From the UHGV virus genome UHGV-1964037: a stretch of 14,733 nt of DNA. One strand, 5' to 3'. Made by a program: the position numbers and the translations under genes. This DNA is from a virus. The notes beneath the pieces are model-generated. The model searched no databases. It saw nothing but the letters and a program-made list of their open reading frames with translations, and was not told the DNA's origin. Positions 2,144 to 14,733 of this stretch are shown piece by piece (the first letter of the stretch is position 1; every line of letters starts with the position of its first letter).

Positions 2144-4073
2144 TTATGATGATGCCCGGCTTTCGTTAACTTTGACTGTGACCGTATCAAGCAGTACCGG
2201 ATACGTCGCTTTTGCCCCCGTGATATCTGTCAGCGTCAGCGTATCTGCTGTAAAGCCATCATTTGTCCACATCACCAGGTCAAACGCAGACTGCTCTGCA
2301 TCATCAATCACCGGCACCACTTTTTCGCTGTTATTTCCCGCAAAGCGGAAAACAACTGTATGCCAGTTATGGTCAAATGCCCCAAATGTGCCCAGTTGCG
2401 CATTCGACTCCCCCTTGTGGTACATCAGATTCAGATTTGATGCATCCGTCTGAAGGAAGAAGGACGCCAGCATGCTGTTTGCTGTCGCGCCTGACGCCCA
2501 CTGCGACACCGGCCAGTACAGACCAAAGACAAACTGACCGTTAACCAGTTCGACACCCTCCGGGATCTTAAACCGCACGGCAATTTCACCTCCCTTACTG
2601 AGAAGATTTTTTGCCTCCTCCACCGCAACAGTACGGAACATCTTCCAGGAGGTCAGTTTACCCGGCTGTTTTTCCAGTCGCAGCGCCTTCCTGCCACTGT
2701 CATCCGTCACAGTGCCTTTACCACCGGACGCATTCCACTGCTGCTCTGTCCATACACCACTGCCACTGTTCGCATCATATCCGGCCACCATTCTTGTTAC
2801 GGCTTCAGTATGACCGCCTGCAGAAGTACCTGCACCCTGCTGTTGCGTCGGACCCGCAGAGCCAGACTGTGCATCCCCCGTGGAGGCTGGCGTGGTCGCC
2901 AGCGGTGCAGACTGCCCGCTCAGGAACGGCAGCAAACGCCCGGCTCGCACCAGTATCTCTCCTGCCAGCCGATCTGAAACAATGCCTCTTCGCGCCCAGG
3001 AGCTGAAGTGCGTTTTACGATCGGCTGTCGTCCAGTTACCATTACTGCGTGACGCGGCACCATAGTATCCCGCCGTGATAATGTCCGGATCTTCTGACGG
3101 CTCGTTTGTCGGCACATTCGCACCATGCTCATCCGTCATCAACGGCACAAAGTGAATATTCTGCGCCGCCTTGCCTTTATAGCCTCCGTAAACCGCCTCA
3201 TACTGCACTGCATACTTCGCCTTCCAGTCGTACGTGGTGTCACCGCAAATCCACGGGACGCCGGACGTTGTCCCGCCAATACACTGGTCTGCAATATCTG
3301 CCAGGTCTGCACGGTATTTATTTACCATGGCAAGAAAAAGTGCATTGTGCTCTGCATGTCTCCCCGAACTGACATCTTTTTCCCCCTGCATCCAGATCAC
3401 CGACAACAGCACGTTTTTCGGATTTTTCTTCAGGGCTGCACGCGTTCTGCTGACCAGGTCACGATACAACGGTTTATCCACCCCCCACAGGGAAGAGCCC
3501 GCTGTCGCACCCGACGCCTCATTAAACGCGCCCTCTGCTCCCGCAGTAAATCCCGAATCGCCACGTCCACACGGGACAAGAAGGATCCCCGCACGGGCAG
3601 GCATAAACGGCAGCAGTTTTTTGGCCACATGCAGGGCATGCCCCACACAGCCATACTGCCCTTTATTGAGGTCTGCTTTCGGGTGATTCAGATTACTCAC
3701 GTCCTGCACATCATGCAGACAATGGTCTGCAGGAATAATGTCGTTATATGCACAGGCCGCACCGCCCGGTGTCACCGTGCTGCGACGCGCCAGTTGCTTA
3801 ATACGCGGGTCAGGACGATCATACGTATCCGGCAGCGGCAGGCCCCCCCCCAAAAAAAACCAGGTGGGATGGCCCGCCACCATCACCCGACGGTTGCACC
3901 ACCACCGGTGTGGTGACATCACCTTCCGCCGCAATGGCCTGCATCAGGGTATAGGGCGTGATGGCCACCGGACTGCCAAATGGCTGCCACCCCTCCTTCA
4001 GTTTTTGAGTCAGTCGCTCCGCAAGGTCTGACGGCGACGCCGCCCTGACCACGTCATAGTGTTTAAATGCCAT
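2144..4073 (-). pseudogene. nanS-p-like prophage esterase (DUF1737-like N-terminus plus SGNH/SASA-type esterase domain), frameshifted at a homopolymer tract
   Basis: ATG at 4071-4073 with GGGAGG RBS opens an 84-codon frame (MAFKHYDVVRAASPSDLAERLTQKLKEGWQPFGSPV...) that stops at 3819. A second frame continues from the same tract for 596 codons to 2144 and contains GRGDSGF and other esterase-like blocks. The two frames overlap at the C9/A8 run 3843-3859; removing one base joins them into about 642 codons. Size and placement (between Q and S) match nanS-p genes of Stx and Stx-like phages. Family assignment is from memory, not a search. Confidence 0.55.
3843..3859. repeat. adjacent homopolymers C9 and A8 (coding strand T8 G9) at the frameshift site
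   Basis: Plus-strand cccccccccaaaaaaaa at 3843-3859, read directly from the sequence. Confidence 0.95.
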
Positions 4074-4267
4074 GAATCCTCCCGGTCGGGATAATGTTGT
4101 GAGTCAGATGAGGGAACGGGCTGAAGTCCGGAAGTTACAGGACAATGGCAGGAGGAAGACTACAGCCCGCAATACGAAAAAGGCCGCGCTATTGCGCAGA
4201 GTGATTACTGTCGGATATTATTCGCCAGCTGAAATATTACTTCACGTTTTGTTGTTTATTCCTTGCC

Positions 4268-4296
4268 GCCCGCGTCTCCCAGCGCGGGCTTTTTTT
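4268..4296 (+). terminator. terminator-like hairpin plus T7 run on the plus strand, followed by a second GC hairpin (4308-4327)
   Basis: Stem GCCCGCG / CGCGGGC with loop TCTCCCAG, then TTTTTTT. Downstream AGCCCCTC-CGGA-GAGGGGCT hairpin. No U-run follows either hairpin in minus sense. Confidence 0.45.
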
Positions 4297-4353
4297 GTCC
4301 ATAAGAAAGCCCCTCCGGAGAGGGGCTGGAGAGTGGCGCTATGTGCCATTGCA

Positions 4354-4375
4354 TGGTGCCGGGTGCCTCCCGGTG
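4354..4375. repeat. 22-bp element TGGTGCCGGGTGCCTCCCGGTG, with an exact reverse-complement copy at 14559-14580
   Basis: Exact 22/22 match in inverted orientation about 10.2 kb away. The minus-sense reading CACCGGGAGGCACCCGGCACCA holds three GGCACC hexamers and a CCGGG/CCCGG hairpin. Confidence 0.9.
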
Positions 4376-4644
4376 AGTTCAGTATCAGCACCTGAACCCG
4401 CACAGAAAGGATAAGGGTCGGTGACAAAACACCAGTTGCTGATTGCCCCTCCGCACAGGGGGATTCACCATGCCAGTTTCTTTTAACAAACTCCCCGCAA
4501 ACCAGACAACAGTCAACCGCCTGAATTGTGAGGTATTTAAAAATTTCAACGGGTAACTGATACCCTGCTAATCGCCTGATGCTTTCTTTTTCAGCAACGG
4601 GGAAGCAACAACCACCACACCCACCAGCCGCCCATTTACCACAA

Positions 4645-5055: not shown

Positions 5056-5448
5056 CTAATCATTTTTTACTTTTTTGGGCAGCCAGTCGTCCATCTCCAG
5101 CCTTACACCCAGCATCGACAGACATCCGTCAATAAATCCTTCAGCAATCTGCATCTCAATTCGTATTGCCTTTTCGCTCTTCTTTCTTGTTCTGGCAATC
5201 TGCCTTTTTGATATGCGCAGCAGATAATGAGCTACCAGCAGCGAATACTCGTCCGGTTTTTTCTTCTTCAGGCGCGTAAGGCAGTTTTCGATGATAAGGC
5301 CGTCATCATCGCTGCAGGCCGGGCGAGGTTTAGCGGTGGATGGTAAAAGGCCTTTAAATCCAGCAGCTATCGGAGAATAGTCCACCCCGGTGTTACCACT
5401 TGCCGCCCATGCCCCCCAGCGTTCAAGAACCATCTGAATATCACGCAT
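5056..5448 (-). CDS. Q: late-gene antiterminator Q (Phage_antitermQ family, QuuD-like)
   Basis: ATG at 5446-5448 with GGAG RBS. Product MRDIQMVLERWGAWAASGNTGVDYSPIAAGFKGLLP...RLKKKKPDEYSLLVAHYLL...GVRLEMDDW matches the short E. coli prophage Q family (N-terminal MRDIQMVLERWGAWAA, C-terminal RLEMD, from memory). Positioned upstream of the late/lysis genes. Confidence 0.8.
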   Translation of the reverse strand: MRDIQMVLERWGAWAASGNTGVDYSPIAAGFKGLLPSTAKPRPACSDDDGLIIENCLTRLKKKKPDEYSLLVAHYLLRISKRQIARTRKKSEKAIRIEMQIAEGFIDGCLSMLGVRLEMDDWLPKKVKND

Positions 5449-5465
5449 CAACTTTCTCCACAAAA

Positions 5466-8808: not shown

Positions 8809-9296
8809 TAAGCCCCCACGTAATTCCCTGACAGATACCACTCATCACCCGCTACAGCGCGCTTTCTGCTTTTCCGTAAGCACCGCTCACGACGCGCCAG
8901 AAAATTGTTTCGTTCTGGCTGGGAGTGGCTTTCACGGAATGCCGCCATCCACACGGTTGCAGCACGACGGTATAAGCCCCTGGACTCCAGTTCTTCCGCC
9001 TGGCGGGTCAGGCACAAAATCACCCGGGGATCGTTAGTGCCGACATAGAAATTGCGCACAGGTATGGTTTCAAGAACAGGTTGCAGTTTCTCCTCCTGCG
9101 ATATCTCAGCCTGGTGTGGGAAATGTCTGCGTGTTTTCCCTTCACAACAGTGAGCCACACGGCCACTCTGACGTAACTTGCTTGCTGACTGCAGAACGCA
9201 CTGTCGTGAGTAACCAGCAAAAGCATCCGCAATGTCACCTGAAGTACACCCCGGATGGGCTTCAATGAATTTCTGTACATCGTTCATCAGACTCAT
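8808..9296 (-). CDS. PerC-like putative transcriptional regulator, 162 aa, with an N-terminal extension
   Basis: C-terminal half AEELESRGLYRRAATVWMAAFRES...RRERCLRKSRK matches my recollection of the PerC/Pch motif (LE..GLWRRAA..W......R..CLRKSR). ATG at 9294-9296 with GGGGGTG RBS, 2 nt after the upstream stop. Confidence 0.45.
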   Translation of the reverse strand: MSLMNDVQKFIEAHPGCTSGDIADAFAGYSRQCVLQSASKLRQSGRVAHCCEGKTRRHFPHQAEISQEEKLQPVLETIPVRNFYVGTNDPRVILCLTRQAEELESRGLYRRAATVWMAAFRESHSQPERNNFLARRERCLRKSRKRAVAGDEWYLSGNYVGA

Positions 9297-9298
9297 GA

Positions 9299-10282
9299 TC
9301 ACCCCCTGAATCCTGTCGGGATCTGGCTGTAGTCCACGTTGTCGTAACTGGCTTTGAAGTACGGGTCCTCGCGTCTGGCTGCAGATACCGCAGGAACTTC
9401 CCAGGATTCTTCGAAATGACGATCCGGACCAAAGAACGTCGACGCCTGCTTCACGAACTGGGTACAGGTATTTCCAGAGACACGCACCCAGGCGGCATAG
9501 CGTTTCACACCGTCGAGCATGGTTTCAGGTGTCACACCTTCCCTGATTCGGGCTTTCCAGGCTTTAAAAGCGGCGGATTTTGAATTACCACCAGCACGTT
9601 TGGGATATTCCTGCCAGGCCTGTTCAAATTCCGGTGAATATTCCTGTCGGGCAGAACGCGCTGGTGCAGACGCGTCAGCGGATGCGCCAATAGTGTTTTT
9701 AGTCTCCGTTGTAATCTCTGTAGTAATCTCTGTATTTGTATCAACATTCGGCGTATCCCCTGTTCCGTTACGACGTCGGGGGGTGTTCCGTTTTAACGTA
9801 ATAGCTGTATCGCTGATTGCATTATTGCTGTTACTTTCTGGCGAAACAGAAGAAGGTGTGGTGATGGCCGCAATTGCCTGTGGGTTGATCCCGACAAACA
9901 AAATATTGCTACATTTCACCCCATCGAGCATTTCCACCGTGCGTAAATCCAGAGTAATAAACCCGGCATCACGGAGACGCTTCAGCGCATCTGCGGTTTC
10001 CCTTTTCCCGAAACCAAACTGCTCAGCAAACGCCTGGTAGCTTCTTTGCAGTTTGTCGCCCTGAAAACGCTTGCGATATCCCAGCAACGCTCCGGTGTGC
10101 TCATCCCTGACCTCTGTCGGGCGGTACCAGTAAACGATCTCTGAAAGCAGAGCGATAGCCGTCGCATCCGGACGCCCACTGGGTAGTCGAATATATTTCC
10201 ACCAGGTCGCAGGTGTAACATTGCCGGAAATATTAATTTGACCAATAGCCATAACTTCCGGTGTGGGGGCGTAACGGCTCAT
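9299..10282 (-). CDS. putative replication initiation protein (lambda O-like role) with an internal low-complexity linker
   Basis: 327-aa product. N-terminal helical domain (LSEIVYWYRP...LKRLRDAGFITLD), Thr/Ser/Asn-rich linker containing TEITTEITTE, C-terminal domain (EFEQAWQEYPKR...AFKAWKARIREGVTP...). It sits where O sits in lambdoid early operons. The coding sequence contains direct repeats like the O-embedded lambda ori. Family assignment is tentative. Confidence 0.5.
   Translation of the reverse strand: MSRYAPTPEVMAIGQINISGNVTPATWWKYIRLPSGRPDATAIALLSEIVYWYRPTEVRDEHTGALLGYRKRFQGDKLQRSYQAFAEQFGFGKRETADALKRLRDAGFITLDLRTVEMLDGVKCSNILFVGINPQAIAAITTPSSVSPESNSNNAISDTAITLKRNTPRRRNGTGDTPNVDTNTEITTEITTETKNTIGASADASAPARSARQEYSPEFEQAWQEYPKRAGGNSKSAAFKAWKARIREGVTPETMLDGVKRYAAWVRVSGNTCTQFVKQASTFFGPDRHFEESWEVPAVSAARREDPYFKASYDNVDYSQIPTGFRG
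9711..9734. repeat. perfect 12-bp tandem duplication GTAATCTCTGTA x2 inside the O-like gene, with flanking 9-bp direct repeats TGTTCCGTT (9761-9769 and 9784-9792)
   Basis: Read directly from the sequence. The repeats lie in the linker-encoding part of the gene and are followed by an AT-rich stretch (9793-9840). Confidence 0.85.
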
Positions 10283-10578
10283 ACAACCTCCTTCCGCGGC
10301 ATGAGAATTGTGTAGCCACGCGCAGGTTGTAGTCTGGCTTTTGCATCAATAGTAAGCGTTGCAATTTTTCGGATATGAAGATAACCAGCTCTTTCCAGTG
10401 CCAGGGTTTCCCTGAATATCGCTTGCTTAGAACAACAGCAGAAATCAGCAAGCACCTGATGATCAATAACTCTCTCGCCTTCACCGTCTGAAGAACCCGA
10501 CATCAAAACACGCAACATAATCAGGCGCTGAATCGGGTTATCGAAAGCACATCCGCACACAAACTGAAAACAGTTCAC
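10279..10578 (-). CDS. hypothetical protein, 99 aa, possible HTH
   Basis: ORF with GTG start overlapping the upstream stop (GTGA) and ATGA overlap with the O-like start. Segment VIDHQVLADFCCCSKQAIFRETLALERAGYLHIRK looks like a helix-turn-helix. Confidence 0.4.
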   Translation of the reverse strand: MNCFQFVCGCAFDNPIQRLIMLRVLMSGSSDGEGERVIDHQVLADFCCCSKQAIFRETLALERAGYLHIRKIATLTIDAKARLQPARGYTILMPRKEVV

Positions 10579-10799
10579 GCCACACCTCCCAGACGCTTAA
10601 ACATTTTTCCGGAGCAAAAGGCTATAAGCGGCATACTGACGCGGTAATTACGGCCCAGCGGTTCACAAATCACCTTCTGACATTCACGGTCAACCAGGCT
10701 AACACGTAGAACATGCCCTGCAGGCGTGGTGTACCACTGACCCGGACGAGGACAACGGAAAGTATGATTGGTAAACCGTTTGAAAATATTCCGGATCAT
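10575..10799 (-). CDS. hypothetical Cys-containing small protein, 74 aa
   Basis: ATG overlaps the Rha-domain gene stop (ATGA). Product MIRNIFKRFTNHTFRCPRPGQWYTTPAGHVLRVSLVDRECQKVICEPLGRNYRVSMPLIAFCSGKMFKRLGGVA has 4 Cys (possible metal-binding). Confidence 0.4.
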   Translation of the reverse strand: MIRNIFKRFTNHTFRCPRPGQWYTTPAGHVLRVSLVDRECQKVICEPLGRNYRVSMPLIAFCSGKMFKRLGGVA

Positions 10800-11944
10800 T
10801 TGCGCCCCCTTACCTCTGAAGGGTTCAGCGACAAATTTATGAGACTGGCCAGTAGCGCCGCGTCGTTGATGCGGTCATACAGACTTACAGCCAGCGGGGA
10901 TTCGGCTTTTGCCAACATGGGATAAAGCTGCTGCAGCCAGACCTTGTGGATTACCGACAGGTGGGAGTAAAGCACGCTGGCGTTATCTGCGGCATCGCTC
11001 AGCGTGGATGGCTTTGAAAGCAGTTTTTCCATCTGGTTAAAGGCATTGATGTATGCCTCTTTGAACTGGGCAGCACGTTTACCCGTGAAACCCATAGCAA
11101 GAAACGCAAAGCCGTCGCGGGTTATTTGATAGCAAGGTAGTTTGCGGCCTGTGCAATCGGTGTAATCACTCACCGAAAAATTGCGGGCAGTGAATGATGC
11201 GGAACATTCAAGCGTGCGGATCTTTTTCAGTACATCGTCATGACGTTTGGAGAAGAAGTTGGCAACAGCCAGGGATGAAGTAACAGCCTGACCATCAACG
11301 ATGGCAATTTCAGGTTGAGTGAGGGTTGGGATCGTAGCCATGATGGCAGCCTCCGTATGCAATGGATAACTTCCACCACCGGAAACGCCAATTTCGCTGG
11401 TGGTGAACTGAGCAGGGTTGGCGTAACCGGCGCATACGGAAACCGGCGCACCTTTCGGTGCCCCCACCCAGCCCACCATAATTTGGGTATAGCTGAGTTG
11501 TAGCAACAAAAAAGACGCTAACGCGCCAATTGTCGCCGTATGCAATTCCAGGACGCCAATCCCGACACCCGCTTTATAAGGTGCCTGAACAGTGTAACGT
11601 CCCGGAATGGCAGAATCAATGTGCTGGTGGTCCTTCACACTCAACAAAATCACGCCTGAATTTCCACAAAGGACTAAAGCACTCATGCTGGTAGTCTTTG
11701 CGAAGATAGATAACGCGCTGTGTTTCTGGCTCCCAACGAATAACATGAACATAAAGTCCTCTTCCGTCACGAAACCAGCGGTTAAGTTCCTGCACAACTC
11801 GCCCCCCACAGTCAGGTAAAGTTCTCTGTGGTTACTTACAGCCAGGTGATTTGGTAATCTGCATTCATGCCGTAACAACAGGTGTTCAGCGACGCTGACC
11901 ACCAGCTGTTGCGACAAACGGTTATTTGCCGTTAAACTATTCAT
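10796..11944 (-). CDS. Rha-domain phage regulatory protein with about 200-aa in-frame N-terminal extension of unknown function
   Basis: C-terminal 181 aa (from ATG 11339-11341, preceded by GGAGG) MATIPTLTQPEIAIVDGQAVTSSLAVANFFSKRHDDVLKKIRTLE...ITRDGFAFLAMGFTGKRAAQFKEAYINAFNQME is a clear Rha (Phage_pRha) domain. The frame stays open for a further 201 codons upstream to an ATG at 11942-11944 that overlaps the CII-like stop (ATGA). A 600-nt open frame by chance is unlikely, so the long form is annotated; the true start is uncertain. Confidence 0.5.
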   Translation of the reverse strand: MNSLTANNRLSQQLVVSVAEHLLLRHECRLPNHLAVSNHRELYLTVGGELCRNLTAGFVTEEDFMFMLFVGSQKHSALSIFAKTTSMSALVLCGNSGVILLSVKDHQHIDSAIPGRYTVQAPYKAGVGIGVLELHTATIGALASFLLLQLSYTQIMVGWVGAPKGAPVSVCAGYANPAQFTTSEIGVSGGGSYPLHTEAAIMATIPTLTQPEIAIVDGQAVTSSLAVANFFSKRHDDVLKKIRTLECSASFTARNFSVSDYTDCTGRKLPCYQITRDGFAFLAMGFTGKRAAQFKEAYINAFNQMEKLLSKPSTLSDAADNASVLYSHLSVIHKVWLQQLYPMLAKAESPLAVSLYDRINDAALLASLINLSLNPSEVRGRK

Positions 11945-12555
11945 GCGTTAGTTTCTCCACAACCAGAAGCAATCGACGCCACGACGCCCGGAGCTGCACA
12001 CTCGCGGGCGTTACTATTTTCTGGAGCGCAGAAGATTTTGTAGACCAGTGCTGCATGCTCCTGGAGCTTCGAAATTGAGAGGTACAGCTCGTCGTTAATT
12101 GCTGTCTTCTCATGCGGTTCCACTACACCGTCTTCGATTGCTGAACGAATCTGTCTGGAATAACTGCCGATCTGTTCAATGACTTCCAGCAGACGCTGGT
12201 TAATATCGGCGTTGTCCACATCCTCGACGTCAGGAAGAGACACAAAGACGCCATTTGCAGACTGCGCCACAGCGTCAGCAATGAAGTGAGTTCCACCAGC
12301 ACGTTGCAAAATCATTGCCCATCCCAGCGGGAAAATCTGATCGCCATCGGCACGAAGGCGGTTAAATAATGCGTTTTCTGTTACATCCAGCCAGTCAGCT
12401 GCTTCAGCGTAACCACCCGGCAACGCTGCGATAGTTTTTCTGACAGCTTTCACGTACCACTCAGGCTGTTTTTCTACTTTCCAGTGATGCTTACCCACGG
12501 TTAGCCTCATCGTTCTGTGGTTTCTGTTAATCGATTTATCCATTAGATTTTTCAT
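11941..12555 (-). CDS. CII-like early regulatory protein (position-based; possibly phage CP76-type CII family)
   Basis: ORF immediately downstream of cro, about 204 aa from ATG 12553-12555 (alternative ATG 12541-12543). Product ...WKVEKQPEWYVKAVRKTIAALPGGYAEAADWLDVTENALFNRLRADG... Function is inferred mainly from gene order. Confidence 0.35.
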   Translation of the reverse strand: MKNLMDKSINRNHRTMRLTVGKHHWKVEKQPEWYVKAVRKTIAALPGGYAEAADWLDVTENALFNRLRADGDQIFPLGWAMILQRAGGTHFIADAVAQSANGVFVSLPDVEDVDNADINQRLLEVIEQIGSYSRQIRSAIEDGVVEPHEKTAINDELYLSISKLQEHAALVYKIFCAPENSNARECAAPGVVASIASGCGETNA

Positions 12556-12736
12556 AAAGCTCAGGTTTAAATGGCAACCGTCCGCAAGTTCTATATGCAG
12601 CTTCTGCTGCACGTCCTTTTGGAATTAACTGGCCCGGACGGTTTCGCCACTGATAAACGGCTTCAGTTGTTATGCCGAAAAAAGCAGCAACTTTCTCAAT
12701 ACTGCCGAAGTAGCTTTCGATATCGTCAGTTGTCAT
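12536..12736 (-). CDS. cro: Cro-like HTH repressor
   Basis: 66-aa product MTTDDIESYFGSIEKVAAFFGITTEAVYQWRNRPGQLIPKGRAAEAAYRTCGRLPFKPELYEKSNG with the Cro/YdaS-type HTH signature (FFGIT..AVYQW....IP). GGAGGG RBS. Divergent from the repressor gene. Confidence 0.7.
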   Translation of the reverse strand: MTTDDIESYFGSIEKVAAFFGITTEAVYQWRNRPGQLIPKGRAAEAAYRTCGRLPFKPELYEKSNG

Positions 12737-12833
12737 ACGCCCTCCAAACTAAGTTTTATTAGATGCTAATTACAAATCTATCTTTGGTCAATAAAAACTA
12801 AGATTACTTAGCAATTCAAGAAATGGTGCTCCT
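12737..12833. promoter_or_regulatory. divergent cI/cro control region with two 14-bp operator-like palindromes and a candidate PR promoter
   Basis: CTAAGTTTTATTAG at 12749-12762 and CTAAGATTACTTAG at 12798-12811 (inverted CTAAG/CTTAG half-sites). Minus-strand promoter candidate TTGACC (12786-12791), 17 nt, TAGCAT (12763-12768) directed into cro. Confidence 0.55.
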
Positions 12834-13460
12834 ATGGAAACGGTTGGTCAGCGTATAAAAGCTCTGAGAAGAGTTACCGGAACGTCCCAGAAAGAATTGG
12901 GTAAATTTTGTGGAGTAAGCGACGTTGCTGTGGGGTACTGGGAGAAAGACATCAATACCCCTGGTGGGGAGGCACTTTCGAAATTAGCGAAGTTCTTCAA
13001 TACGTCAATAGATTACATTCTTTATGGTGCTGAGTTTGAAGGCAAACTCGTCACAAACATGCGCAGAGTTCCTGTAATATCGTGGGTTCAGGCTGGGCAG
13101 TTTACTGAGTGCAGGGCAGCAGAAGTGTTTAGTGAAGTGGACAAGTGGGTAGATACATCATTAAAGATTGGTGATAACTCATTTGCATTAGAGGTTAAAG
13201 GTGACTCCATGACTAACCCTAATGGCCTCCCAACAATACCAGAAGGCGCAACAGTGATTGTAGATCCAGATGCAGAACCTCGTCATGGAAAAATAGTCAT
13301 CGCTCGACTTGATGGAACAAACGAAGCTACAGTAAAAAAATTAGTCATCGATGGCCCTCAAAAGTTTTTAGTGCCATTAAATCCTCGGTATCCCAACATC
13401 CCTATCAATGGTAATTGCCTTATCATTGGTGTAGTCAAAGGAGTTCAATACGAACTCTAA
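12834..13460 (+). CDS. cI: CI-type prophage repressor (N-terminal HTH plus C-terminal S24 LexA-like autopeptidase domain)
   Basis: 208-aa product. N-terminal HTH (QKELGKFCGVSDVAVGYWEKDINTP), Ala-Gly cleavage site (WVQAGQF), catalytic Ser in GDSM and a Lys-Lys pair (TVKKLV), as in lambda CI/LexA. Confidence 0.85.
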   Translation: METVGQRIKALRRVTGTSQKELGKFCGVSDVAVGYWEKDINTPGGEALSKLAKFFNTSIDYILYGAEFEGKLVTNMRRVPVISWVQAGQFTECRAAEVFSEVDKWVDTSLKIGDNSFALEVKGDSMTNPNGLPTIPEGATVIVDPDAEPRHGKIVIARLDGTNEATVKKLVIDGPQKFLVPLNPRYPNIPINGNCLIIGVVKGVQYEL

Positions 13461-13514
13461 GACCTCTCTTCTCTAACTAAGGCACCGAACTAAGAAAAGT
13501 TTGGTGTTTTCTCT

Positions 13515-13543
13515 TGCCATAATAACTAAGTTAAGTTAGATTT
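13515..13543 (+). promoter_or_regulatory. candidate PL-like promoter overlapping a third operator-like site
   Basis: TTGCCA (13515-13520), 17 nt, TAGATT (13538-13543). The spacer and -10 overlap CTAAGTTAAGTTAG (13526-13539), which matches the OR palindrome CTAAGTTTTATTAG at 11 of 14 positions. Confidence 0.4.
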
Positions 13544-13650
13544 TATATCAAAGATAACGAACAGGCAGGACGCCCACGAAGTAGCCGCCTGGGGCATATA
13601 AAGTCTAGGGTGATTCGTTAGCAACAAAAAAGCGCCCTACAGGACGCTTA

Positions 13651-13707: not shown

Positions 13708-13914
13708 ATGCACAAAACAGAACCCAAAATCGTCGCGCCCGGATACACAAATGAGGAAATTTACGAGTGGATGGCAAAGAAGCTGGCAGCTATAAACCAG
13801 CTTCGTGAAGTGCTGTCTTATCGACAGGAAACAATAGACTCCTTAAAAAAACTGGATCAGGAAATCACGGTTTTATCACAGGATGTTACTTTAGATATTG
13901 TGCAGACAAATTAG
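13708..13914 (+). CDS. hypothetical small protein, 68 aa, predicted helical/coiled-coil
   Basis: ATG at 13708 with strong GAGGAGG RBS 6 nt upstream. Product MHKTEPKIVAPGYTNEEIYEWMAKKLAAINQLREVLSYRQETIDSLKKLDQEITVLSQDVTLDIVQTN. No arginine-rich motif, so not an obvious N homolog. Confidence 0.55.
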   Translation: MHKTEPKIVAPGYTNEEIYEWMAKKLAAINQLREVLSYRQETIDSLKKLDQEITVLSQDVTLDIVQTN

Positions 13915-14320
13915 GATCCCATTCATTTTCGTCAAAATCATCAAAGTGATGAATTTGTGATCTCCAGTCTCGATAATCTAAAAATTTCTGGGCGGTTACG
14001 CTTATTTTATCAAGTGTGAGTTCATCCTGAATTGAAAGAAGAAGTTCATCAAATTTCATCTCATTAATCTGTTTTGGCATCCAGTGATGCTTCATCAGAA
14101 TAAGGTGAACCAGAGCCTTTTTCCCATTCAACTGATTATAGGGAGTGCCGAATTTCTTCCGGTGCTCATGTAAGACAAGGTCCAGAAGAGTAAGTAATGT
14201 TGCCCTTGATTCCACTTTGCTTATTTCGACTGATGACACTACCCCACTGATTTCAATGCCCCGATACTTTCCAACATTTTCACAGTGGGATTTGTACAGC
14301 GTGTAGATATTACCGGACAT
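13886..14320 (-). CDS. hypothetical protein, 144 aa, in AT-rich moron-like DNA next to cI
   Basis: ATG at 14318-14320 with AAGGAAAAG upstream. Product MSGNIYTLYKSHCENVGKYRGIEISGVVSSVEISKV...KFLDYRDWRSQIHHFDDFDENEWDPNLSAQYLK. Region looks about 40% GC against about 52% around it (by-eye estimate). The 3' end overlaps the convergent 68-aa ORF by 29 bp. Confidence 0.55.
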   Translation of the reverse strand: MSGNIYTLYKSHCENVGKYRGIEISGVVSSVEISKVESRATLLTLLDLVLHEHRKKFGTPYNQLNGKKALVHLILMKHHWMPKQINEMKFDELLLSIQDELTLDKISVTAQKFLDYRDWRSQIHHFDDFDENEWDPNLSAQYLK

Positions 14321-14335
14321 TTCTTTTCCTTTTGC

Positions 14336-14387
14336 GTTGTTGGGGATAACCAGATTAACCGAATCCTTGTTGTTGGGGAATAACCAG
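14336..14387. repeat. two direct repeats GTTGTTGGGGA(A)TAACCAG immediately upstream of the 144-aa gene
   Basis: 14336-14353 and 14369-14387, 18 and 19 bp, differing by a single A insertion, start-to-start 33 bp. In minus sense each contains TTATCCCCA or TTATTCCCCA, loosely DnaA-box-like. Confidence 0.85.
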
Positions 14388-14604
14388 GTCCACCTCGCCT
14401 GATGTGGCTAAAAGCAGGCACATAACAGCTAAGTATTTTTAACCAGAGAGAATCCTTAGCGTTGTGGTGAATGCGGCTCAGCGCACGCGGGTTAAGGTTG
14501 AGGCTGACAGTCGACCTTCTGTGGATACCCACCCGTCTGGTGTGCAACCTTCGCCAGGCACCGGGAGGCACCCGGCACCACAACTTTATGCTGTGTGTAG
14601 TCCT

Positions 14605-14651
14605 GGAGGTACCAGTTTGTACCCTTGCTTCCGGCTGGTACCGTCCTTTTT
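14605..14651 (+). terminator. terminator-like hairpin with T5 run on the plus strand
   Basis: GGAGGTACCAG / CTGGTACC(G)TCC stem with a 19-nt loop, followed by TTTTT (14647-14651). Lies about 25 nt downstream of the 22-bp element copy. Confidence 0.4.
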
Positions 14652-14733
14652 ACAAAACAGAGAAGAGCATCACCGGACGACGGGCTCATAACCCAATCCA
14701 TCCGGGCGGCTGCCACCGCAGGTGTTCTTCTCT

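Follow-up and report, generated by a model that had tools for sequence, protein, structure and literature searches.

The 14,733-nucleotide (nt) stretch of DNA analysed here (the window), from UHGV virus genome UHGV-1964037, raises the question of why one exact 22-bp sequence should occur in it twice, in inverted orientation. The sequence, TGGTGCCGGGTGCCTCCCGGTG, lies at 4354-4375 (+) and its perfect reverse complement at 14559-14580, as an earlier note on this DNA had pointed out. It was the top-ranked inverted repeat of the window. No further match to the 22-mer was found in the window at up to three mismatches, and none of 200 dinucleotide-preserving shuffles gave any 22-mer match. The chance figure put forward in the earlier note (order 1e-5) agrees with a simple estimate of ~6e-6 (~N^2/2 position pairs x 4^-22). 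We found that the inverted repeat comes from two related copies of one folded prophage RNA, in which it is the most conserved piece. The repeat exists because two paralogues of one structured RNA each follow the direction of their own operon, and the 22-mers are identical because they are the most constrained part of the fold. Copy 1 lies downstream of Q and copy 2 beyond cI, the positions originally described, and owing to the inversion the same RNA sequence stands in sense on the minus-strand late transcript and on the plus-strand leftward transcript.

Structure of the two copies

The sequences around the two 22-mers had been taken to be unrelated. However, a second conserved block, (U)GGUGAAU, is common to both copies 93-94 nt upstream, and both display the same helix architecture with compensatory changes, followed in each case by a terminator. 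As the upstream block, the helices and the terminator are common to both copies, the element spans ~120-220 nt and not 22 nt. The proposal of a discrete element was correct in that the element is a functional one, but not in its size, the true unit being a core of ~120 nt. The three GGCACC hexamers ascribed to the repeat are present in copy 2 (14557, 14567 and 14574), where the first begins 2 nt outside the 22-mer, but copy 1 has only two.

Copy 1 is a member of a known family, STnc100 (Rfam RF02076). Its full unit of leader, core, linker and terminator, at 4297-4502 (-), matched the Rfam model over the full length with 143.2 bits, against a gathering score of 47. Copy 2 is a full-length paralogue with the same four parts at 14431-14653 (+). 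It scored 38.4 bits (E = 3e-6 in a local search) over model positions 1-206, aligns end to end with the family with all helices in common, and is a variant class of STnc100 in a distinct genomic niche. We then used a covariance model, R1, made from an alignment of 37 diverse representatives and both window copies. R1 had exactly two matches in the window, at the core of copy 1 (4348-4476 (-), 96.1 bits) and at that of copy 2 (14459-14586 (+), 82.5 bits). Both cores were also recognized by independent folds, and that of copy 1 by the Rfam structure line. There was no third copy in the PR operon or elsewhere in the window, where R1 gave no other match above 14 bits.

The core of ~120 nt contains five helices and a pseudoknot, and the RNA reaches ~200-220 nt with leader and terminator. 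The helices, as given by RNAalifold, are P1, P2 (a CCCC/GGGG hairpin), P3 (GCG/CGC around a variable insert), P4 and P5, and both copies retain them in the alignment to STnc100. In copy 1 (minus strand, helix coordinates read from the sequence), P1 is formed by 4473-4466 and 4358-4351. The 5' strand of this helix, GCAUGGUG, is found 94 nt upstream, with an invariant AAU (J1/2, 4465-4463) directly after it, and the 3' strand starts with CACCAUGC inside the 22-mer. P2 occupies 4462-4446, the pseudoknot pairs 4443-4438 (AUCAGC) with 4389-4384 (GCUGAU), P4 pairs 4398-4392 with 4382-4376, and P5 extends over 4373-4359. The 22-mer (4354-4375) runs from the final P4 base through a single unpaired A and the P5 hairpin CCGGG-AGGCA-CCCGG into the 3' strand of P1, of which it takes in the first five nucleotides. 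In copy 2, the 22-mer (14559-14580 (+)) plays the same structural part. On the plus strand, P1 of this copy pairs 14461-14469 (GUUGUGGUG) with 14576-14584 (CACCACAAC), AAU is found at 14470-14472, and P2, at ~14473-14488, differs in sequence from that of copy 1. The pseudoknot pairs 14494-14500 (AAGGUUG) with 14545-14551 (CAACCUU), P4 pairs 14535-14542 with 14552-14559, and P5 is at 14561-14575. Between the two copies, P1, P2, P4 and the pseudoknot have changed in a compensatory manner, and the independent minimum-free-energy folds agree.

Folding of both copies in the RNA sense and a search for compensatory changes, as the earlier note had suggested, thus gave a common fold and such changes. 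The fold is strongly supported by covariation in two sets of sequences. When viral contigs were scanned with the 21-mer, at least 120 loci with 110 variants of the sequence were obtained, the ends being the same in all of them. Among 99 distinct sequences from phage contigs, 95.8% of the cells were paired, compared with 40-45% in slid controls; double changes were present in 17 of the 26 pairs, and 0 of 500 shuffles reached the observed values. Independent species-representative genomes across Enterobacterales (121 distinct sequences) gave 94.9% paired cells and double changes in 21 of the 26 pairs. As both alignments had been fitted to the model, they are biased towards its structure, but the margin over the controls was large. 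The pseudoknot, in which the strand just 3' of P2 pairs with the loop of P4, was first noticed by eye and afterwards put to a separate test. At this fixed position, compensating pairs of more than 35 different kinds occur, and the mean complementarity was 6.6 with true partners and 4.9 with mismatched partners. A mutual-information scan for extra tertiary pairs returned nested helices only, because the variable region is poorly aligned.

The ends of the element are conserved and its middle is highly variable. Across Enterobacterales, from Escherichia to Pantoea and Rahnella, AAU, P2 and P5 are near-invariant while all helices covary. In Pantoea arrays, the inner P1 pairs GGUG/CACC are swapped for other complementary sequences, and AAU, P2 and CA-CCGGG-AGGCA-CCCGG-C stay. 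Variation in P5 was seen as CCGG-AGAUCAGCA-CCGG in mEp460 and Stx2a_WGPS2, as a decayed P5 in the e14 prophage of Escherichia coli K-12, and in one diverged Pantoea unit. A conserved fold of the aptamer type, with covariation and invariant junction nucleotides, is thus present in the five helices and the pseudoknot. With respect to tRNAs, ARAGORN found none overlapping any element in the window and six array loci, and there was no Rfam tRNA match at E values up to 1-10. To our knowledge, CRISPR repeats, tmRNA, RNase P RNA, 4.5S RNA, 6S RNA and CsrA-type GGA loops offer no convincing likeness.

These results bear on the possibility that the 22-mers act as DNA, either as a pair of recombinase or regulator sites that invert or bracket the 10-kb early region or as linkers in module exchange. 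The exact identity over 22 bp, the inverted arrangement, the conserved ends around a highly variable middle and the breakpoints in phage similarity beside copy 2, where matches to mEp460 and Stx2c phages begin at 14604 and others at 14390, could all be understood in this way. However, the compensatory changes keep RNA pairing and not DNA sequence, the orientation of the element tracks transcription, and most loci carry a single copy or tandem copies on the same strand. No invertase gene was found in the window, near either copy or elsewhere. The relatives examined keep gene order and orientation, the four of them being collinear with the window, a number small enough for a rare inversion to have escaped. 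Covariation, copy arrangements and collinear relatives effectively exclude the DNA-level readings, to which we give hardly any credence. The recombinase site pair and the invertible 10 kb raised in the earlier note fall with them. The third proposal, a mosaic module joint, describes a side effect at most: similarity to mEp460 and Stx2c phages begins just past the element, and recombination at its conserved ends may contribute to mosaicism. The option that came closest was a cis-acting RNA or protein-binding site, in that the 22-mer sits in a structured RNA with strong covariation.

Distribution and genomic positions

In about a dozen loci whose neighbourhoods were examined, the position of the 22-mer was conserved in related prophages and phages, and every neighbourhood was a prophage or phage context, so that the 22-mer is not a common host repeat and the refuting conditions named in the earlier note do not hold. 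By megablast, 2,905 of 5,426 complete E. coli genomes were found to carry the copy-1 type, and 2,105 the copy-2 type. A single E. coli genome harbours the element in up to 10 places, and members of the family are found across Enterobacterales. In 166 of 195 model matches (85%), the element and the next gene downstream share a strand. No consistently linked protein gene was noticed in the contexts examined. We distinguish two positional classes, represented by the two copies of the window.

Type 1 elements are situated in the late operon, between Q and esterase or lysis genes. An intrinsic terminator follows within ~60 nt in 81 of 100 non-redundant members, and 52 of the 100 have a recognizable sigma-70 promoter, whose -10 element mostly ends 0-2 nt before the element, so that transcription would start at ~P1. 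They occur with all three families of Q: PF06530 in the window, PF06323 at locus L012 and PF03589 at locus L071. At L071, a canonical PR' promoter (TTGCAA-17-TAATCT, then AACGAT, which we take to be the lambda pause-inducing sequence) and tR' stand directly after a lambda-type Q, and the cassette is found ~1 kb beyond them, ahead of holins. Judging from this arrangement and from the predicted position of PR'/tR' in the window, type 1 elements are not the PR' leader. A role as the leader RNA in Q loading was also considered and set aside, as the element occurs with all three Q families and PR'/tR' appear to lie upstream of the cassette; Q21 has been loaded in vitro on positions -40 to -1 of PR'21 plus an artificial leader (bioRxiv 10.1101/651190). 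The block GGTGAAT was inspected as a possible sigma-dependent pause element and rejected, since it contains no hexamer with A at position 2 plus T at position 6. In Stx2a_WGPS2, the element is found downstream of stx2B, as published for STnc100.

Type 1 elements also form tandem arrays of 3-6 units. On plasmid pAPP145_2 of Pantoea sp. App145 (L162 947-1991), a DUF1133 gene has head-to-tail arrays with three cores per terminator and ~120-130 nt spacing downstream of it. In each array of this kind, P1 of the second core is a different, compensating helix. Similar arrays are present in loci L200, L185, L194 and L152. At L012, a tRNA-Lys and a tRNA-Met (4006-4160 (-)) lie directly upstream of a four-cassette array and downstream of a Q82-type Q; at this locus the elements share the late-operon leader niche with phage tRNA genes.

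Type 2 elements lie 0.4-1.7 kb downstream of, and are co-oriented with, S24-type cI genes of unrelated immunity (loci L086, L118 and L040). They occupy the same position in SfV, 689R6, mEp460, Stx2a_WGPS2 and E. coli K-12 e14. In the SfV/689R6/mEp460 group, the element is followed by an intrinsic terminator and then by the early-left genes, and in e14 it stands directly ahead of xisE-intE. Among 16 type 2 members, 13 had no detectable promoter. The e14 coding sequence ymfH (locus L125 3534-3845) overlies a copy-2-type element (3529-3655, 67 bits), the one with the decayed P5, and ymfH is probably not a protein gene. In the searchable literature we came across no earlier account of the early-left class, of the pseudoknot, of arrays with several cores or of the copy at ymfH in e14. 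The small RNAs (sRNAs) svsR and co293 of NC-SV/e14 were considered and are different elements, svsR being located at the 3' end of cI.

Two further groups of matches were noted. The exact 21-mer also occurs in assemblies labelled Prolixibacteraceae, Streptomyces, Mucilaginibacter and Vagococcus (loci L140, L170, L177 and L196). Of these, L140 (388 bp) and L177 (1,625 bp) are very short contigs and L170 and L196 long ones, and the occurrences may reflect enterobacterial contamination rather than true hosts. A weak model match of 18.6 bits in the yfdQ-yfdR gap (L124 8645-8754) was dismissed, as it looks like an ordinary terminator hairpin.

Possible roles of the RNA and its core

Judged from its sequence, copy 1 appears to have its own promoter, a putative sigma-70 promoter at 4488-4516 (-) with TTGACT (4516-4511), a 17-nt spacer and GAGTTT (4493-4488). 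Its intrinsic terminator at 4300-4327 (-), AGCCCCUCUCCGGAGGGGCU followed by UUCUUAU, was identified by a terminator scan and as the Rfam 3' hairpin. A small open reading frame (ORF) and two terminators lie within the ~680 nt that separate the copy from the Q stop codon upstream, and the esterase gene follows beyond the copy. Copy 2 has no convincing promoter of its own. It lies ~1.1 kb beyond the cI stop codon and ~900 nt downstream of the early-left promoter PL, in a mostly untranslated leader, and is overlain by non-conserved ORFs only (14464-14691 (+) and 14239-14583 (-)). PL is the likely source of the transcript carrying copy 2, a use of the promoter that we infer. The intrinsic terminator of copy 2 at 14605-14651 (+), which consists of GGAGGUACCAG, a 19-nt loop, CUGGUACCGUCC and UUUUU, aligned to the STnc100 terminator hairpin; a simple detector missed it because of the long loop. 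The same hairpin is found in mEp460 with a cleaner stem of 10-11 bp. The terminator precedes the early-left genes, yfdP…xis-int in relatives.

STnc100 has been reported to be structurally homologous to PasD, both being treated as base-pairing sRNAs, and PasD is located near a Q gene (PF03589) and esterase, holin and lysozyme genes (2026 preprint, bioRxiv 10.64898/2026.05.13.724894). PasD1/2 of enteropathogenic E. coli (EPEC) are ~172 nt long, were confirmed by Northern analysis, need Hfq for stability and are abundant in lysogens, with a base mean of ~9,000-11,000 (table S2, PMC8550237). Their proposed seed, UGUGAG, has weak MEME support and, together with the chimeras detected when interacting RNAs are ligated and sequenced (RIL-seq), maps to the 3' end, within the linker ahead of the terminator (PMC8550237). 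A copy of STnc100 located 75 nt downstream of stx2B overlaps the Hfq-bound sRNA EcOnc27 of enterohaemorrhagic E. coli (PMC12370729, PMC12711010). Compared with STnc100, PasD1, PasD2, EcOnc13 and EcOnc27, copy 1 is a full-length high scorer at the typical site, with a terminator hairpin and U tail. The usual site of STnc100, downstream of Q, is that of copy 1 and not that of copy 2, which is downstream of cI/PL.

The identity, fold, positions and distribution of the elements were determined directly, and from homologues we infer the promoters, the transcripts made and the action of the core. The explanation that we favour, and consider reasonably probable, is that the window contains two paralogous STnc100/PasD RNAs, each oriented with its operon, copy 1 as an autonomous sRNA cassette and copy 2 on the PL transcript. 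Copy 1 would be a self-contained unit of promoter, core, linker and terminator inside the late operon, between Q and the esterase gene. By its homologues, it would be transcribed in the lysogen, stop at its own terminator and accumulate as an Hfq-associated sRNA, and would be read through by polymerase that arrives from PR' modified by Q. Copy 2 would form part of the PL transcript after induction and end at the terminator ahead of yfdP…xis-int, giving an RNA that resembles LPR1/PreS of lambda at tL2a. The variable 3' linker is the part reported to pair with targets, and the invariant core is most likely a stabilising or factor-binding domain.

Lambda offers a parallel. Hfq-bound RNAs of this phage end at tR' (6S) and at the early-left terminator tL2a (LPR1/PreS) (bioRxiv 10.1101/2024.10.31.621285), that is, at late and early-left intrinsic terminators, the same pair of niches as that of copies 1 and 2. 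6S is present in lysogens and LPR1 in the lytic cycle only. Unlike the window copies, which are paralogues with one conserved fold, 6S and LPR1 are unrelated to each other, and whereas 6S is the PR'-tR' leader, copy 1 is not the PR' leader itself. We detected no likeness in sequence or structure to lambda 6S or PL-leader RNAs, and R1 had no match in lambda.

Several observations weigh against the favoured explanation. The -10 element of copy 1 is weak and a consensus promoter scan did not call the promoter; the equivalent cassettes of other phages carry strong TTGACx-17-TAAATT promoters at the same place. The 38.4 bits of copy 2 fall below the 47-bit gathering score of Rfam, so that copy 2 is a divergent relative and not a curated STnc100 member; it further differs from the family in its early-left leader site, the absence of a convincing promoter and its P2 sequence. 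Three of the 16 type 2 members passed the promoter threshold. The invariance of P5 is partly an ascertainment effect, as the sequence sets were collected with the exact 21-mer. Moreover, the published base-pairing role of PasD/STnc100 does not involve the core that contains the 22-mer. Since seed and chimeras lie in the 3' linker and terminator, the sRNA model leaves the near-invariance of the core, its pseudoknot and its head-to-tail multiplication unexplained. The same is true of the placement of the cores, in leaders of both operons that need processive transcription.

That placement is what a second reading would account for. Here the core would act in cis, as part of the leader, to control read-through where intrinsic or Rho-dependent termination follows, be it as a put-like RNA modifying RNA polymerase, as a nut-like dock for an induced phage factor, or as a ligand-sensing aptamer. 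Copy 2 would take N-less phages of the SfV/e14 type from PL to xis-int, and the terminated RNAs of the lysogen would be an uninduced by-product. In both operons the elements precede intrinsic terminators and point in the same direction as the gene downstream. Type 1 cores begin at ~+1, like putL, and type 2 cores are internal, like putR (put positions: PMC9378689). The neighbourhood of PL, in the window and in relatives, yielded no N-like ORF; the ORFs adjoining PL (68 and 144 amino acids) and those of the relatives match families of unknown function only, and in mEp460 the plus strand is free of ORFs from cI to the element. The ~900 nt of mostly untranslated PL leader ahead of copy 2, a fold as complex as that of an aptamer or a ribonucleoprotein RNA, with invariant junction nucleotides, and the position of the published seed outside the core are also consistent with a role in cis.

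putL and putR of the N-less phage HK022 are likewise paired, related RNAs in long-operon leaders, one promoter-proximal and one internal, upstream of terminators. However, they are two-stem RNAs of ~70 nt with unrelated sequence, located after PL and PR and not in a late operon, whereas in the window one copy lies downstream of PL and the other in the late operon, the PR operon having none. put acts without terminating at the next terminator, by a read-through that needs no protein factor and is blocked by mutations in the beta' zinc-binding domain, and a functional likeness to the window copies is hypothetical. Neither the STnc100 model nor R1 matched the early region of HK022, and reading of the putL and putR sequences revealed no common motif. 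As for the nut sites of lambda, copy 2 is at a nutL-like position and P5, with a 5-bp stem and a pentaloop, has the dimensions of boxB. On the other hand, the loop AGGCA is not GNRA-like, no boxA was seen, no N-like protein was detected, and the element is a multi-helix RNA of 120 nt and not a single hairpin.

Further objections to a cis role come from the cassettes themselves. Type 1 cassettes, with apparent promoters of their own, are directly upstream of lysis genes, and their homologues accumulate in terminated form in healthy lysogens. It follows that efficient read-through cannot come from the core by itself. The members have unrelated terminators and linkers, and by inspection only, we saw no conserved alternative pairing with the core and no obvious complement to the invariant P1/P5 strand. 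Head-to-tail arrays of several cores would also not be expected of a cis antiterminator. A factor-dependent version of the cis model survives the objections raised, and we regard the cis reading as a whole as unlikely, but as the chief alternative. If true, with the core controlling passage from PL in N-less prophages of the SfV/e14 type, it would represent a third solution to early antitermination, beside N/nut and put.

In a third reading, the core would be a decoy or sponge, a high-copy module titrating some conserved factor of the host or the phage, either a protein or, possibly, a small molecule. The junction and the P5 hairpin would be the binding site, and tandem arrays would raise the dose. 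The near-invariance of AAU, P2 and P5 across Enterobacterales amid covarying helices, the arrays of 3-6 cores with several cores per transcript in some, the high abundance of PasD in lysogens (PMC8550237) and the fact that the core is not the reported seed are in line with this. However, a consistently linked protein gene was not seen in the contexts examined, and CsrA-type GGA loop motifs were not conserved on inspection. The sponge reading overlaps the favoured explanation instead of excluding it, and taken by itself we consider it improbable.

A pseudoknotted core separate from the seed, paralogues in the early-left leader and arrays together suggest an unrecognized function of the core. 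As a tentative and rather unlikely proposal, the core could be a functional RNA domain of a new class that binds a host component or an induced phage factor, the form in copy 2 gating passage from PL before xis-int and the late cassettes and arrays being trans-acting or decoy versions. Current work treats STnc100 and PasD as ordinary Hfq-dependent sRNAs. What the analysis adds is that the conserved part is a complex pseudoknotted domain apart from the proposed seed, that a paralogous class resides in the early-left leader ahead of xis-int, where it is probably mis-annotated as the protein gene ymfH in K-12, and that cores are amplified in arrays. This provides a concrete candidate for the control of early-left transcription in N-less lambdoid prophages, and in Shiga toxin (Stx) phages one copy adjoins the Shiga toxin and lysis genes. 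With regard to annotation, a repeat that could be mistaken for a recombination site is explained, and probably spurious ORFs are flagged.

Surroundings of the copies in the window

The window covers the early and late regulatory region of a lambdoid prophage, in which the rightward direction of lambda corresponds to the minus strand. The gene for the S24 repressor cI is at 12834-13460 (+), and opposite to it is a putative cro-like ORF at 12536-12736 (-). A CII-like gene, an Ash/Rha regulator gene, and DUF968 and KilA-N genes follow the cro-like ORF on the minus strand. Q is located at 5056-5463 (-) and belongs to PF06530, the family of the Q proteins of phage 21 and 933W (Yin et al., bioRxiv 10.1101/651190). 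The SASA/DUF6645 (nanS-like) esterase gene occupies 2144-3934 (-), and lysis genes would be expected beyond it by likeness to an annotated relative. The operator OR (12747-12812) has repeats in common with OL/PL (13488-13545 (+)), where operator repeats of the form AACTAAG…(C/G)TTAG are found and a promoter scan gave TTGCCA-17-TAGATT at 13514-13542.

The first ORF after PL, at 13708-13914 (+), encodes an acidic protein of 68 amino acids (phrog_1744, unknown function). It is followed by a convergent ORF at 13886-14320 (-), which encodes 144 amino acids (phrog_5286, unknown function) and has its own terminator at 13649-13630. Transcription from PL must cross this gene in antisense before reaching copy 2. 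Directly after the terminator of copy 2 and ahead of yfdP, we noticed an inverted repeat of 15-18 bp, ACAAAACAGAGAAGA … TCTTCTCTGTTTTGT (14652-14676 with 14716-14733). The repeat runs off the end of the window; it is complete in locus L126 (3548-3640) and forms a large stem-loop in the early-left leader.

On the late side, a direct repeat, GTATGTCAGTATGTT, directly after the Q stop codon is followed by a strong terminator, AAACCCGCCGCCUGGCGGGUUUUUU (~5045-4970 (-)). From their sequence, these probably represent the true PR'/Q-binding region and tR', the leader then being very short. At 4939-4927 (-), an orphan GGTGGTGAATACC resembles the 5' box of the family (P1 5' strand and AAU) without a matching 3' half, and could be what is left of another cassette. 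P2 of copy 1 and the terminator of this copy are alike in sequence (CCCCU…GGAGGGG), which would allow cross-pairing, a property not general in the family. Convergent with copy 1 is a plus-strand terminator at 4244-4296 (+), GCCCGCGTCTCCCAGCGCGGGC followed by T7. This segment closely matches the EPEC RIL-seq sRNA candidate 'E2348C_1409.E2348C_1408.IGR' (Fig. S5, PMC8550237), and a second small RNA, in antisense orientation, may end here.

In the immunity region, Rfam matches to C4 antisense RNA (80.7 bits, 11396-11483 (-)) and to isrK (58.9 bits, 11508-11584 (-)) both lie inside the 382-amino-acid Ash/Rha ORF (10796-11944 (-)). The start of this ORF is probably over-called, and the two matches suggest an immunity module of the P1/P7 c4-antirepressor type.

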